This document shows, piece by piece, positions 24,001-33,000 of a stretch of DNA of 64,000 nt. The DNA comes from an uncultured Verrucomicrobiae bacterium. GTDB lineage: Bacteria > Verrucomicrobiota > Verrucomicrobiia > Chthoniobacterales > Chthoniobacteraceae. The stretch spans positions 32,001 to 96,000 of the forward strand of contig CAWIKF010000001.1 of assembly GCA_963836755.1 (NCBI GenBank). Reading direction: 5' to 3'. Position 1 is the first letter of the stretch. Each line of letters starts with the position of its first letter. Made by a program: the position numbers.

Positions 24001-27000
24001 GCGGATCGAGCATTTAAAGGCATTGCCGCGGGAAAAATGGCCATTCACCAGCGCGGGAGACATTGCGGCGGGCAACGGCTCAGCCGCTGAGCTGAGCATC
24101 GCGGCTGATGAATCAGCGACGCGCGCGGTCCGGCGTTTGCTCGCGGGCGGCGAGGGACGGCTCGCGGTGCTCGATGGCGGCAAAGTTGCGGGGATCATCA
24201 CGCGTCACGACGTTTTGAGTTTCATCAAAATCCACACCGAGCTGGAAAATTAGCGGACGAAATCAATCCAGCCGAAACGCCGCGGAATGTGGAAAAGCGG
24301 CCGGCCCGTGGGCGACCACGCGCTGAGCTCGCGGGCAGAATTTTCCGGTCGATCAATGCGGTAAAAGTTCGCGCGCCATTGCTGCGTCCCCGGCAAATCC
24401 GGGCCGAGACTTCCAAATGGAATCGCAATCTCCACCTCCCAAAACTCCGGCTGCAAATCGACCGAGGTCCGCAGCCCCTCGCAATTCCACGCGAAAGATT
24501 TTCGGTAGCCGTTTTGATTGCGGCGCAGCACCAGATCGCAGACGGCGTTGCGCGGATTGACCTCGATTTCAAAATAGCTTTCAAGATCGCCCACCGGATC
24601 GAGAAAAACTTCCACGATCTCTTCCTCGTAAAGTGGCGCATCCCGCTTCGTCATCGTGGCCCACGCATTTGTGTCGCGGCAGCTAAATAAAACGAAAAGC
24701 TCCTGCTCAGTCCACGCAAGCTTGAGCGAGGTTTGCTGCGACGGCTCGCCGCCGTGCACCGCCTCTTTCAGGAAAACCGCCGGAATCCTCTCCCAATCAG
24801 GCTTCCCGGCAAAAAGACCGCACTCGATTCGCGGCTCTTTTTCCTCTATTGCCGACACGCTACTGCGGCGGTTGCAGCGTGAAAATCTTCGCGATGGCCG
24901 CCCCGAATACTAAAATTGCCACGCCCGAAAATGCGAGGATGGCGCGGCCTTTCGGATCCTTTTTTTTCTTCTTCGTCTTGAAGGGAGACGCGTTTGTGAA
25001 GTCGCTTGGACGATGGCTCGACTCGGCCGGCTTGGTATGATGATCGCCGTCCTCCTCCTCGGGCATCGGATGTGCCTCGCTCGCGACCTCCGATGCATAC
25101 ACAGCCGCGATTTTTCCAAAGCGCACGCGGTCGCCGTCGTGGAGCAAAGCGCCATCGACCGAGCGGTCGTTCACGCGCGTGCCGTTGGTCGAGTTCAAAT
25201 CCTTCAGATGATAATCGCCGCCAGTCAGCAGCAGTTGCGCGTGATGGCTCGAGACCGACGCGTCGTCGATGTGAATCATGTTATCGCCAGTCCGCCCGAC
25301 CGTGATCTGGTCTTCGCCCAGCTCGTGCGTGACTTCCTGGCCATCGGGCATGGTGATGATGAGCTTCGGCATGCTTTTAAAATATCAGCGCGCCTGCGTC
25401 TCCTCAATCAATTTACGGAACTCGCCGAAAAAGTAGTGCGCGTCGTGCGGGCCGGGCGCGGCCTCGGGATGATATTGCACGCTGAAAACCGGATGCTCGC
25501 GATGCCGCATTCCCTCGACCGTCCCGTCGTTGAGATTGATGTGCGACACCTCCACATTCGCCGGCAGCGAATCGGGATCGACCGCGAACCCGTGATTCTG
25601 CGCAGTGATCGCGACCTGTCCCGTTTTCAAATCCTGCACCGGCTGGTTGCCGCCGTGATGGCCGAACTTCAGCTTGAAAGTTTTTCCGCCAAACGCGTAG
25701 CCGAGGATTTGATGGCCGAGACAAATGCCGAAAATCGGCGTCCGCCCGATCAGCTCGCGCAAAGTTGCATGCGCGTAGCCGAGCGCCGCCGGATCGCCCG
25801 GGCCATTCGACAAAAACACGCCGTCGGGTTTCATCGCCAGCACATCGCTAGCGGATGTTTTCGCCGGCACCACGCGCACCTTGAATCCCTGCTGCCGCAG
25901 ATTGCGCAAAATGTTGTGCTTGATGCCGAAATCATACGCGACGATCTCGTGCGTAACCGGCGGCAACTTTTCAAAACTTTCGCCGTTGTCGCCGATCTCG
26001 ATTTTCGAGCTGTCGCCTTTGACGATCGTCCAATTGCGCGAAAGTTTGTCCTCCGGGTCCCAATCATAAGCCGCGCTCGCCGTCACCTCGCCGACGAAAT
26101 CCATGCCGACCATCCCCTCGCCTTGCCGCGCGCGGGCGACAGCTTCGTCCGGCGAAATGTCGTCAGTTGTCAAACACGCTTTCATCGCTCCCTTCTCGCG
26201 CAAATGCCGCGTGAGCGCGCGCGTGTCCACGCCCTGAATGCCGGCGACGTTCCACTTTTTAAAATAATCATCGAGCGACATCTGCGAGCGCCAATTGCTC
26301 GGGATCGCGCTCAGCTCCTCGATTACAAACCCTCGCACATGCGGCGCGGCGCTCTCGGCGTCGAGCGCATTCACGCCGTAATTTCCGATCAGCGGATACG
26401 TCATCGCCACGATCTGGCCGCGATACGACGGATCGGTGAGCACCTCCTGATAACCCGTCATCGAAGTGTTAAACACCATCTCGCCGAGCGCTGTGCCGGC
26501 TGTGCCAAAGGATTCGCCGGTAAAAGTGCGGCCGTCTTCGAGTGCTAAAATCGCGCGCATGGCGACGCCCACTTTCGCGAGCGCGCGTTCGTTTTCAAAT
26601 CAATTTCCGTCGAGAATTTTTTTCGCAAGCCGCGAGCGCTTCGGGAAGTTTTGCCGCGTCCTTGCCGCCGCCGCGCGCGCTGTCCGGTTTGCCGCCGCCT
26701 TTGCCGCCGACGATCGGCGCGATCTGCTGGATGATTTTTCCTGCGGAAAACTTTGCGGTGAAATCCGACGAAACGCTCGCGACGAGTCCCACGCTGTGGC
26801 CAGGGTCACGAGACCCCGGCTACAACGACCACGCCTTTGAAAGCCGTGCGACTGTCAGCGCATCGGCAATCGTCTGCAACATCTTCGCCGCTCGCGCCTT
26901 GATTTCGCGATGATCGCCGGCGTGCCGTTGACCGTCGCCGATGATTTCGCGATCAAAGTTTTCGCGCGCCCCGCGGCTTCGCGCTTCTGCGCGGCGCGTT

Positions 27001-30000: not shown

Positions 30001-33000
30001 AACAGCCGGATCGAGCCCCGCGGCACGAAACTTTTCCGCCAAAAGATCATGCGCCTCCTGGTCGAAATCGCTCGGGTCCCCCGCGCTTTTATCCGGCGAG
30101 TAAACCGTCGCGTAAAGCCGCTCGGCGGGAAATTTCCACCGCTCGACGACCAGCTCCCACGCCCACTCGATCGCTTCCTTTTTGAAGTAATCGCCGAAGC
30201 TCCAGTTGCCGAGCATCTCGAAAAATGTGTGGTGGTAAGTATCGAGCCCGACGTCGTCGAGGTCGTTGTGCTTGCCGCCGGCGCGAATGCACTTTTGCGT
30301 GTCGGCCGCGCGCGTCGGCGAGCCTTTGATCGCGCCGCTCCACGTGTCGACGTCCGGTTTTCTTTCGCCCAAAAAAATCGGCACGAACTGGTTCATCCCC
30401 GCGTTCGTGAAAAGCAAATTCGGCGAGCCGGGCATGAGCGAGCTCGACGGCACGATCGTATGATTTTTCTCGCGGAAAAAATCGAGGAACGACTGGCGGA
30501 TTTGCGCGGAGGTCATGAAAAAAGGAGGCGAATCTACGCCAGCGCGCGCCGCGCGTCACGCCGCGAGTGCGTCGGCGACCATTTTCAGGTCGGCGACAAA
30601 GTGCGCGTATTCGCGCTCGCGAGCCGCCTCGTCCGGCGCGCGGAGGAGCGACGAGGGATGCACGGTGACGAGCGTTTTTTTGGAAAAGTCCGACGTCAAA
30701 AACTGCCCGCGATCCTTCGTCACGCGGATCGCCGGCCCGAGCACCGCGCCCGCCGCCGTCGCGCCGAGGCAGACGAGAATCTCCGGCTGGATGATGCGCA
30801 TCTCGGCCTCGAGCCACGGCTTGCACGCGGCGATCTCACGCGCGCCAGGCTTTTTGTGCAGACGCCGTTTTCCGCGCGGCTCCCACTTGAAATGTTTGAC
30901 GGCATTCGTCACGTAAACCGCCGTCCGATCCACGCCCGCCTCGACCAGCGCGCGGTCGAGCAGCTTCCCCGCCGGGCCGATGAACGGCCTGCCCGCGAGG
31001 TCTTCCTGGTCGCCCGGCTGCTCGCCGACGAAGACGACTTTCGCGCCGGGCGGCCCTTCGCCGAAAACCGTTTGCGTCCCGTTTTTCCAAAGCGGACAGG
31101 CGCGGCAATCCTTCGATGCGGCGCGAACTTTTTCCAGGCTCGTGGTGTTCGGCACCGGCGCGGGCGCAAAGTTTTCCGCGCTCTCGTCGACGTCCGTTTT
31201 ACTTTTGCGAATCATTTTTTCCATTCGCCGGGGCGCTTCACTCAGCAACGCTGGGATCAGCGCCGCCTCGGGCAAATTCTTCCAATACTTTTTCGGCATC
31301 TCCGCCTGCATCGCGTGCACTTTCACGCGCGCGGGATTGAAAATATTCGCGTAATACGTGCGCCACATTTCCTCCATCTCGTCATCGCGCGGCGCGGCGG
31401 CTTTGGTCACGCCAGCGCTGATGGCAAGCCGCTCGCCGTCCCAATGCGCGCAGCGGTCGGGCGTCAAAATCGCCCAGCGCATGTTCGCAAAACGATCGAC
31501 GAAAAATTTCGCGTTCGCCTCGACGATGTGATGCGACGGCTCGAACCACGCGACGTAAAAAGTTTCGCCGTTTTCCTCCGCGCGCACTTCGCGAAAGCGG
31601 ACGAAGGCGCGCATTTTATGGATGTCGTGCCGCACGGACTTTTCCATCTCGGCCAGCTCGCGCACATCGGCATCGACGGCGATGTCGAGGAGCTTCGGCT
31701 CGCCGTGCGTGAGCCGCCAGAGCACGCGATAAAGCAGCGCCCATCGGCGCTCGTCGCGATGCAGCGCAACGGTCTTTGCGAGTTTGAAAAAAGTTTTTGG
31801 CACCAGAAACCTCGCACCATTTTTCTGCGCCGGCTCCTCTGCTTCGTCGAATAAATCAAGTGCCGGCTGCTCCGCGGTCAGTTCCTGCCAATGAACCGTG
31901 TTCGGCTCCAGGCCTTGATTCAGCGCCGATCGCGCCGCGCGCTGCCAGCCGGCAAAAGTCGGCGCGAAGGTGATCTGTTTCACAACTCGCCGCTCAACAC
32001 CGACGTCGGCGGCGCGAAAAGATCGAGCTGCTTCGCCGGTCGCAACCGCGCCGCGAGCGCATCGGAATCGAGCGCGAGCACGTGCGGATTGTGATCGGCG
32101 GTGATGATGAACGGGGAAACTTTTTTCATCGGAACTTTGATCCGCGCGAGATCGGCGAGACGGATTTTGTGCCAGCGCCGCGCGCGTAAAAGTCGGTCCA
32201 CATTCCGCACGCCGAGGCCCGGCACGCGCAGCATCAGCGCGCGCGGCGCTTTGTTGATATCGACTGGGAAAACGTGGCGATTGCGGAGCGCCCACGCGAG
32301 CTTCGGATCGATTCGCAGATCGAGATTCGGCGCGTCGGGCGGCGTGATCTCCTCCGCGCGAAATTCGTAAAAGCGCATCAGCCAATCGGCCTGGTAAAGG
32401 CGGTGTTCGCGCACGAGCGGCGGCGCGATCAGCGGCAGCTTGCTCGAGGCGTCCGGGATCGGGCTGAATGCCGAGTAGTAAACGCGACGTAAACGGTGCG
32501 TTTGATAAAGCGCCGACGCCTCCTGTAAAATCGCCGTGTCGTTCGCCTCGGTTGCGCCGACGATCATCTGAGTGCTTTGACCGGCGGGCGCGAACGCGGG
32601 TGCCTTCGCGCTTTGTTTACGTTCTGCTTTCGCCGCGTCGATGCGCGTTTTGATGCCGCTCATCGCGCCGTGGATGTTTGCGTGATTTTTTTCGGGCGCG
32701 AGTTTTTGCAAATCCTCGCGCCGCGGCAGCTCGATATTGATGCTGATCCGATCAGCGTAGCGGCCGGCTTCGGCGATTAATTCCGGCGCAGCCTCGGGGA
32801 TCGTTTTGAGATGGATGTAGCCTTTGAACCGATGCTCGAGGCGCAAAACTTTTGCCACGCGCACGACCTGTTCCATCGTGTAATCGGGGTCGCGGATGAT
32901 GCCGCTGCTGAGAAAAAGTCCCTCGATGTAATTGCGCCGGTAAAAGTCGAGCGTGAGCTGCACCACCTCCTCCGCGGTGAATCGCGCGCGCTGCACACTG

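Follow-up and report, generated by a model that had tools for sequence, protein, structure and literature searches.

A RAYT transposase domain embedded in frame in the only alanyl-tRNA synthetase of a Chthoniobacterales bacterium: evidence for a probably mobile REP-RAYT-REP cassette

The single alaS gene of an uncultured soil member of the Chthoniobacteraceae carries an in-frame REP-associated tyrosine transposase (RAYT) domain between inverted REPs. We believe that this insert is probably a mobile REP-RAYT-REP cassette, without a start codon, stop codon or evident promoter of its own, that resides in housekeeping genes, where it occupies surface loops that tolerate it. By sequence, it belongs to a RAYT clade of the Chthoniobacterales. 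Positions refer to the window, the whole stretch of 64,000 nucleotides that was analysed, unless a contig is named.

Results

The alaS gene and its insert

As assembled, the alaS open frame (26953-30516, minus strand) encodes 1187 amino acids, which Pfam tRNA-synt_2c matches in three stretches. Searches by tblastn with both halves of the protein found no other alaS in the genome, in agreement with the initial annotation, which had described a RAYT in frame in a single alaS. The 3' end of the gene (C-Ala/DHHA1; 26600-27000, minus strand) is broken by about 11 indels. When the indels of the X1 contigs were applied by script, the frame extended to about 26600 and to 1302-1304 amino acids, and the corrected C-terminus was 78-79% identical to the AlaRS of a genome of the same genus (G001). 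Thus, the split 3' end is an assembly error, as had been suspected.

The insert lies in loop s3, at approximately codons 569-816 (28069-28812, minus strand), has no stop codon, and consists of an extra REP arm, the left REP, the RAYT core and the right REP. It had been reported as a 248-codon insertion; the in-frame insertion stands, but its exact ends do not, because the loop is hypervariable and they are uncertain by several codons. It sits between the equivalents of both residues that read the G3:U70 pair in Escherichia coli AlaRS: N486 (29059-29061, minus strand), aligned with Asn303, which reads U70, precedes it, and D829 (28030-28032, minus strand), aligned with Asp400, which reads G3, follows 13 codons past it. 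On the structure 3HXU, the site maps to chain residues of approximately 383-388.

Contigs from separate short-read runs cross both junctions: X1-6 the left (28705-28889, 0 differences), and X3-21 (27948-28190) and X2-12 the right. A 15-bp duplication marks the right edge of the insert (28069-28102), and the X2/X3 contigs have an in-frame 15-nt deletion of the duplicated 15-mer. No listed contig joint deletes the s3 insert. An assembly or binning artefact, which the indel errors only 1.1 kb away might have suggested, is therefore refuted to near certainty by these contigs and by 39 further AlaRS copies in other genomes.

The insert encodes a RAYT

The RAYT core (aa 627-783; 28168-28638, minus strand) has the HUH motif, H690-V-H692 (28441-28449, minus strand), and the single catalytic tyrosine in a Y-x3-N arrangement, Y761 to N765 (28222-28236, minus strand), that define RAYT / TnpA-REP proteins. 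Pfam Y1_Tnp matches aa 646-730 of AlaRS, and NF047646 matches the insert at 66.8 bits (E 1.8e-18) and the core at 68.6 bits, below its curated cut-off of 80. The TnpA-REP structure 4er8 was not reached by a single-sequence PDB search; it was the best PDB match of the core by profile (E 6.8e-5) and the best PDB fold by Foldseek (E 2.9e-7, TM 0.61). The motifs, the family match and the fold all bear out the original identification of the insert as a RAYT with its HUH motif and catalytic tyrosine. In AF2 models, the AlaRS and RAYT domains both fold (pLDDT 88.9 for the RAYT core) and the linkers fall below 50; in these models, the RAYT is predicted to form a domain of its own between two linkers that are disordered and that the REPs encode. 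The alaS copy is predicted to be a RAYT nuclease. Weighing against its activity are the alanine that follows N765 (Ala766), where 86 of 91 embedded cores have a proline, and the fact that the genome contains no more than 11 arms of its REP.

REPs in alaS and in the genome

The left REP (28677-28720, minus strand) has a GGAG foot and two hairpins and is translated as GSARFQRAASGILP. The right REP (28095-28135, plus strand) is inverted, and its gene-strand translation is QDAKHSTLEACAP. The cassette thus shows the inverted REPs, with a foot of the GTAG type, that mark RAYTs; here the foot is GGAG. The REPs were first described as 24-bp inverted repeats. Their arms (28096-28118, plus strand; 28697-28719, minus strand) are indeed identical over 24 nt, but the REP is about 44 nt long with two hairpins.

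Three repeats in alaS had been overlooked. The first is the third REP arm (28759-28802, with its flank 28743-28813, plus strand): 28743-28813 and 29688-29758 are identical at 64 of 71 nt, and on this alignment the arm is a local copy of an s1 arm plus adjoining alaS sequence. The second, in loop s1 (approximately aa 238-271; 29704-29800), is an in-frame REP pair (REPIN); one of its arms matches the cassette REP without a difference over 23 nt. The third is a 21-bp tandem array (29211-29405) within an insert in loop s2 (approximately aa 337-455; 29152-29508, minus strand), a loop that houses a RAYT cassette in other AlaRS. A skip over s1 in X4, with other letters between, most likely represents another organism's empty allele.

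Another mark of RAYT / TnpA-REP systems is that their cognate REPs occur as pairs at other loci; here such pairs are present at low copy: C1:273993-274096, C1:616177-616280 and, in ispG, C2:1020799-1020918. These copies had been noted before; the two intergenic pairs, however, belong to a single 662-bp duplication, whose copies are 89% identical, and so count as one event. Eight of the 11 cassette REP arms lie outside the s3 insert and represent approximately three events outside the cassette, in a census made by pattern searches that may be incomplete, because a strict two-hairpin genome scan recovered only 4 true arms. The insert had been called the genome's REP/RAYT system. It is the sole NF047646 match in the genome, but a second REP type (6 arms, without a matching RAYT) and a free Y1 protein of 151 aa with motifs resembling subclass 1.2 (C2:2206408-2206746) are also present.

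The cassette is most likely translated as part of AlaRS

The long hairpins could influence translation, and the alaS copy contains an in-frame ATG (M576) with GGAG upstream. Even so, it is very improbable that a post-transcriptional step removes or bypasses the insert (as an intron or IStron, as an intein or by ribosome bypass) or that an internal start provides free RAYT. Group I/II introns and IStrons were rejected, as no Rfam intron matched within 26000-31500, where one sRNA match was at chance level (E 0.25). An intein was rejected as well: Pfam matched no Hint domain, and the His-Asn/Gln-nucleophile end and an early Cys were absent from 37/37 AlaRS inserts, although Ser starts are not excluded for single inserts. 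Moreover, both linkers are open in frame in all 91 embedded cores. The earlier suggestion of free RAYT from an internal start did not hold up across the clade: 22 of 80 linkers lack any start codon, and a start with a Shine-Dalgarno sequence is no commoner in linkers (16/80) than in control windows (14/80). An internal start would still yield a fusion, because the insert has no stop codon. A promoter scan gave 2 weak matches, none at the 5' edge of the cassette. As the searches revealed neither an intron nor an intein, nor an internal start that is conserved, the cassette is most likely a translated AlaRS fusion that is still mobile.

A clade that has entered few sites many times

Strong matches lay in long open frames in 74/76 cases among 151 genomes of the family and in 65/69 cases among 251 genomes of the order (one in G305), and the clade was found in at least 5 of 301 genomes of a phylum sample in which 12 candidates were scored per genome. 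We sampled 96 distinct cores (40 in AlaRS, 31 in RecG, 16 in ThrRS, 2 in CarB, 1 in MetH, 1 in MmeI and 5 in short ORFs), of which 91 are embedded in frame in host genes. All 73 aligned cores match NF047646 at E<0.001, and one family member (G024) passes the cut-off. No cultured carrier appeared among the named records examined; searches for close relatives gave one distant plasmid match (32%) and none in phages.

The occupied sites are few and fixed: AlaRS (three loops), RecG, ThrRS, CarB and MetH (two loops). The AlaRS s3 cassette is patchy, occurring in approximately 28 of 137 family genomes. Quick trees of the RAYTs rejected a single clade for the AlaRS copies (p-AU 3.5e-8), and near-sister AlaRS proteins carry distant RAYTs (host 88% and RAYT 50% identical; host 92% and RAYT 59%). 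A weak correlation between host and RAYT identity nevertheless remains (rho 0.18), and some pairs co-diverge (95% / 91%). Among 120 long proteins listed, 10 AlaRS and 3 MetH hold two cassettes in different loops, 49-75% alike. These comparisons show a cassette that has evidently entered its sites many times and is swapped and lost.

Selection on the core and co-variation of its REPs

Wherever dS was finite, dN/dS stayed under 0.45; it was mostly 0.05-0.3, and four close same-site pairs gave 0.05-0.12. The HUH histidines are kept in 90 and 91 of 91 embedded cores, and eight active-site and guide-binding positions in 88-91. When 153 columns are ranked by conservation, the metal ligands, the tyrosine and the guide-binding residues all fall in the top 34. 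These patterns show purifying selection, with catalytic and REP-binding residues retained across the clade.

In 79% of 81 cassettes, the left and right REPs agree at 21 or more of 23 nt, a level that comparisons between cassettes reach in 9%; the left foot is GGAG in 50/81 and GTAG in 25/81. REP pairs in s1 were found in 3/23 cassette-bearing alleles and 0/47 others, and each matches the resident REP at 22-23 of 23 nt. REP scars persist at the RecG site, and one allele in a separate comparison has a single REP; none of 27 non-RAYT s3 alleles inspected by eye resembles a gutted REP pair. Counting against the proposed explanation, REP abundance in relatives does not track a matching cassette: G142 and G143 contain 64 and 65 copies of the alaS-cassette REP, and no RAYT flanked by that REP was found there.

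Could the insert be an inert passenger, an old insertion retained only to stay in frame and folded? Low dN/dS is explicable by folding selection inside an essential protein, the alaS copy lacks the conserved proline, and a degenerate core (L137) without HUH motif, tyrosine or detectable REPs is still in frame. However, the conservation of the functional residues, the concerted evolution of the REP ends and the multiple origins make this improbable.

Discussion

We propose a model for how the cassette lives in its hosts. AlaRS would be produced as a single fusion protein, and the tethered RAYT, by its predicted activity, would cut and rejoin single-stranded DNA at its own REPs. This action would copy REP pairs into neighbouring loops, and occasionally the whole cassette would move, existing REPs probably serving as landing sites. 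The cassette may persist because the host gene provides its expression and because it can be removed only by an in-frame deletion confined to the loop. It would be an intein-style tenant that does not splice out. More tentatively, the clade may be a self-mobile RAYT lineage living as an internal domain of essential enzymes, which seeds REP pairs as landing sites, copies its cassette between genes and never splices out; we regard this fuller version as quite possible.

A less probable but serious alternative follows the Bertels-Rainey view: hosts would keep the fused RAYT, translated and functional as a REP nuclease, for a benefit that it brings them, and cassettes would be relocated passively, by RecA-type recombination between the 44-nt REPs or by whole-allele transfer. 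Elsewhere, loop s3 holds many unrelated domains of 34-151 aa without REPs, left unnamed by Pfam and Atlas (best 0.89, all AlaRS-flank or unnamed). On this alternative they must move passively. As they carry no REP, some RAYT-independent route also fills s3, and passive recombination is a live rival. Purifying selection is compatible with both explanations, REP homogenisation could be gene conversion, and the RAYT literature reports no sign of self-movement. Nor could precise cassette ends or a target site be defined, the REP-to-REP length occurring in all three phases. On the other hand, patchiness, frequent loss and two cassettes per gene suit a parasite better than a needed function, and entry into unrelated genes and loops requires a non-homologous step. 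A gradient of flank co-conversion, moreover, is absent next to the site in AlaRS (32), RecG (25) and ThrRS (15). Homing with flank co-conversion was rejected on the same grounds.

RAYTs serve as the standard example of bacterial transposases that have been domesticated and do not jump, and their persistence calls for an explanation. A patchy, multi-origin clade in essential frames offers a second one, namely that the host gene shelters the RAYT from deletion and lends it expression, and it makes the capacity of a RAYT for self-movement directly testable. If the fuller version is true, the clade would be the counterpart of inteins that does not splice and the first self-moving RAYT group, and the same machinery might help to bring in the unrelated domains whose turnover is seen in these loops. 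The clade also shows a way in which domains can enter conserved enzymes of abundant soil Verrucomicrobiota, and it marks loops of AlaRS, ThrRS, RecG, CarB and MetH that accept 250-residue inserts. Inserts of this length distort alignments of marker genes, and earlier RAYT surveys filtered them out.

Comparison with known systems

The closest known systems are the REPtrons (RAYT / TnpA-REP of E. coli, PDB 4ER8). They share with the cassette the HUH and tyrosine core and the fold; REPs with a G[TG]AG foot flank them in inverted orientation, further REP pairs lie at other loci of the genome, REP and RAYT co-vary, and close plasmid or phage matches are likewise lacking (PMC3479197, PMC8266576). 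As far as these sources describe them, known RAYTs are stand-alone, extragenic, usually single-copy and vertically inherited, with no evidence of self-movement (PMC3479197, PMC8266576, bioRxiv 10.1101/119735, 10.1101/2021.07.10.451892). In contrast, the embedded clade lies inside host frames, has several copies in some genomes and does not follow the host gene. The cassette is therefore no canonical REPIN-RAYT of Groups 2 and 3, which are stand-alone extragenic genes with vertical inheritance. E. coli TnpA-REP is described as a monomer; its auto-inhibitory tail (E161) appears to be absent here, as the profile alignment stops at E. coli residue 134.

Subclass 2.7 of TnpA-Y1 shares the DHVH, W and YI..N motifs, long REPs, the changes E100 to D and H101 to R, and the absence of a C-terminal extension, and, like the embedded clade, has relatives in Cyanobacteria (Quentin et al., 2018, PMC6006769). 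In a comparison of motifs only ([ND]HVH / WQ / YI[LR][NQ]NP), DHVH, D746, R747 and the long REP agree with this subclass, and WE and YICGNA deviate. IS200/IS605 TnpA was rejected: NF033573 scores 22-24 bits (cut-off 55), the motif is Y---N rather than Y---Q, and the insert is single copy.

Intragenic REPs, of which Opitutus terrae has the largest number, and the Rickettsia RPEs are short palindromes that are translated in frame where tRNA synthetases and DNA-repair proteins form loops, and the s1 pair is one such case; they are inserts of 20-82 aa without an enzyme, whereas the alaS insert is the transposase itself (PMC3733652). We found no description in the literature of a RAYT nested in host reading frames; Additional file 3 of PMC3733652 and Figure S1 of PMC6006769 might list such fusions. 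Databases give these fusions automatic names.

Inteins and IStrons are nuclease-bearing selfish elements that occupy conserved sites of essential genes and borrow the expression of their hosts. Unlike them, the cassette has neither splicing motifs nor intron RNA, and its host must tolerate the passenger domain.

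An in-frame cassette in the only alaS gene

The alaS gene (26953-30516, minus strand) is a single open frame of 1187 aa that matches the TIGR00344 alaS profile at 721 bits. As the initial annotation held, it is single-copy, because tblastn with both halves found no second alaS across the 3.18-Mb genome, and its tRNA-synt_2c domain is interrupted, the Pfam match falling into three stretches. Three loops of the enzyme carry inserts: s1 a REP pair (29704-29800), s2 an in-frame 21-bp tandem array (29211-29405), and s3 the REP-RAYT-REP cassette (about 28069-28812; RAYT, REP-associated tyrosine transposase). 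Short-read contigs bridge the left junction of the cassette (run X1, possibly that of the source sample) and its right junction (runs X2 and X3). The suspicion of local assembly errors at the split 3' end was justified: because the indels of the X1 contigs restore a frame of 1302-1304 aa, whose end is 78-79% identical to that of the relative G001, we attribute the break to misassembly. Database records of relatives put the lineage in Chthoniobacterales (Verrucomicrobiota).

An array 76% similar to that of s2 lies at C2:93169-93407; in the same-genus genome G002, s2 holds a different, 7-residue repeat. carA adjoins alaS directly downstream (25385-26572), and directly upstream (30556-33236, minus strand) come a Radical-SAM/HhH gene and, after it, a DUF4130-UDG fusion.

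Aligned through an empty allele, s3 falls at the loop of about residues 383-388 of the 3HXU chain. With the numbering shifted by one residue, N486 and D829 are the aligned equivalents of E. coli Asn303 and Asp400, which are described in PMC6055181 as reading G3:U70, the D400A enzyme being virtually inactive. As these residues flank the insert on opposite sides, a working AlaRS needs both halves, and we infer from the sequence that the insert is translated through as part of AlaRS. In an AF2 model (33-sequence alignment) the AlaRS helices and the RAYT both fold (block pLDDT mostly 75-97) and the REP-encoded linkers stay under 50; the pTM of 0.42 leaves their relative position undefined. Modelled alone, the RAYT core reached a pLDDT of 88.9 and had 4er8 as its best fold match.

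The RAYT domain and its REPs

Y1_Tnp spans aa 646-730 of the product. The proposed RAYT assignment held (66.8 bits on NF047646, below its cut of 80), as did retention of the HUH motif and catalytic Tyr (H690, H692, Y761 and N765). This copy has Ala766 where 86 of 91 embedded cores have Pro, which counts against the mobile reading proposed below. The flanking 24-bp repeats are hairpins as claimed, but longer: each REP comprises a GGAG foot and, after it, two hairpins, some 44 nt in all. Eleven arms occur in the genome, five within alaS, where a 71-nt s1 stretch including adjacent alaS sequence has been copied beside the cassette (64/71 identical). REP pairs do exist elsewhere, but the two intergenic ones belong to one duplicated segment (662 bp, 89% identical; C1:273582-274243 and C1:615767-616415) and the pair in ispG is a variant one.

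The genome also has another type of REP, with a GTAG foot, in three pairs (C2:351689-351805, C2:740646-740784 and C4:24663-24746), and no RAYT matching it was found there. A free 151-aa Y1 protein (L344:1405-1860; C2:2206408-2206746) has motifs resembling subclass 1.2 and is flanked by other palindromes.

Distribution of embedded RAYTs

Of 76 core matches with E<1e-37 across 151 family genomes, 74, by count of the match table, fall within open frames of at least 463 aa; across 251 order genomes 65 of 69 (one from the unpublished G305) fall within frames of at least 734 aa. Taking loci for most of these matches and removing L115 and duplicates left 96 cores, hosted by AlaRS (40), RecG (31), ThrRS (16), CarB (2), MetH (1), MmeI (1) and short ORFs (5), with a fixed loop used in each host protein. 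The one short-ORF core examined (L128) sits between two genes of an operon, with start and stop overlapping. A search for longer proteins gave 1921 matches at E<=1e-30; among the 120 listed were RecG (61), ThrRS (6), CarB (1), MetH (6, of which three carry two cassettes) and AlaRS with cassettes in s2 (22), s3 (14), s2 and s3 (9) or s3 and a third loop (1). Among 70 distant matches from other phyla (<50% identity), nine are flanked by more than 150 aa both before and after the match, and 14 on one side or both, the embedded ones in Ile/Val/LeuRS, PurH and DNA methylases. Since distant matches are mostly free-standing, embedding looks derived and recurrent, as judged from unrooted relationships.

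Another RAYT-like subfamily, distinct from the first and marked by the motif LPHW.Q.G.TYF (L357, L353), is likewise embedded in long open frames, in one case apparently at the CarB site. One cassette-bearing ThrRS (L090:2096-4786) also has a HicA-family domain at its end, and a DUF1156 methylase carries a GIY-YIG domain and a RAYT, both in frame (L188:2837-6310). The RecG, CarB and MetH sites of the genome under study are empty, and its ThrRS (L243; C2:1106294-1108405) has an unrelated segment of ~65 aa in the loop that holds the RAYT in relatives.

Selection, REP matching and movement

Four close same-site pairs gave dN/dS values of 0.05-0.12 by our own Nei-Gojobori script, which was run on pairs at >=70% identity; the copy studied here gave 0.11-0.20, and no pair exceeded 0.44. 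H, H, Y and N, together with the guide-binding residues W, D, R and R (positions taken from PMC3479197 and PMC6006769), are conserved in 88-91 of 91 embedded cores, which puts them among the 34 best-conserved of 153 columns; the core search favours copies that are intact.

A REP pair was detected around 81 of the 96 cores. Within a cassette, left and right REPs agree at 21 or more of 23 nt in 79% of cases; between cassettes the figure is 9%. The similarity of REPs tracks that of the RAYTs (Mantel 0.33) better than it does the host gene (0.17). In s1, REP pairs are present in 3/23 cassette-bearing AlaRS alleles, each matching the resident cassette, and in 0/47 others; any REP-like match in s1 or s2 occurs in 7/23 versus 4/47 (p 0.03), a count that includes false positives and in which one allele may be a duplicate.

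A quick RAYT tree requires 21 changes of host label, against a minimum of 6 and 46.8 in shuffles, so the labels are still clustered. A single clade of 39 AlaRS copies was rejected (p-AU 3.5e-8) in an AU test that left out three long or short rows, with labels fixed before the first tree and the test picked afterwards. In a tree of 58 AlaRS alleles, enriched for cassette carriers, cassette presence needs 17 changes versus 19.6 shuffled (81/500 shuffles as low), at least six being forced by starred branches. Near-sister AlaRS alleles hold distant RAYTs (host/RAYT identity 88%/50% and 92%/59%), other pairs co-diverge (95%/91%), and overall rho is 0.18. The allele studied here clusters with two whose loops hold unrelated contents of 83 and 58 aa. 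At the RecG site of several genomes, single REP arms and part-cassettes are left in translations read by eye.

The AlaRS tree departs from family labels, with G002 away from the genome under study and G001; at the low resolution of the tree this hints at transfer or recombination of alaS. Within one genus, RAYTs associated with different REP types are nearly identical in a segment that follows the catalytic Tyr (L349, L350, L356, L365), which suggests recombination between cassettes. There was no flank co-conversion gradient at cassette sites, where neither precise ends nor a target site could be defined.

Other results speak against mobility. The cassette REP has 33 copies in G141 and 18 in G145, both with a matching cassette, and 64, 65, 15 and 17 in G142, G143, G138 and G024, where none of the RAYTs found is flanked by it (the G138 locus is cut by a contig end); in the genome under study the GTAG-foot REP type likewise lacks a RAYT. 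This fits recent loss or cross-recognition, and it removes one-to-one pairing as an argument. Dozens of unrelated segments, 34-151 aa long and without REP, are found in s3 elsewhere. Such domains (L304-L333, L007-L031, L067-L081) occur in about half of family genomes; several are helical, one is a recurring 60-85 aa family, and those tested have no Pfam or Atlas name.

A model for the embedded cassette

We believe that the cassette is probably still mobile, would be translated as an internal domain of its host enzyme and would be sheltered by that essential frame. IS200 enzymes are obligate dimers. E. coli TnpA-REP is described as a monomer, so RAYT activity inside a large host protein is plausible by analogy. 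Ranked next, as a possible though doubtful account, is a RAYT that is active and retained because it benefits the host, with recombination moving it passively. That the insert is an inert passenger we consider improbable. Post-transcriptional removal is less probable again: although REP-to-REP lengths occur in all three phases, frames are open through both linkers, no intron RNA was found at the locus, and none of 37 inserts has an intein C-terminal motif or early Cys. There is no conserved internal start either, which also argues against the free RAYT suggested initially. An assembly artefact is hardly credible, with contigs crossing both junctions.

Comparison with known systems

The observation is real. 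In-frame REPs within genes are known, most in Opitutus terrae (PMC3733652), and long fusions were discarded in the work described in PMC6006769. By term search, PMC3000692, on PVC indels, mentions neither transposases nor palindromes, and searches of the open-access literature, subscription journals and supplements aside, found no paper that describes RAYTs embedded so. JGI automatically names such proteins 'alanyl-tRNA synthetase/REP element-mobilizing transposase RayT'. The alaS cassette qualifies as a RAYT by sequence, fold and REPs, although it scores below the NCBIfam cut. It lacks the stand-alone, vertical pattern of the REPIN-RAYT systems described so far, whereas it appears to work in the same way as a REPtron.
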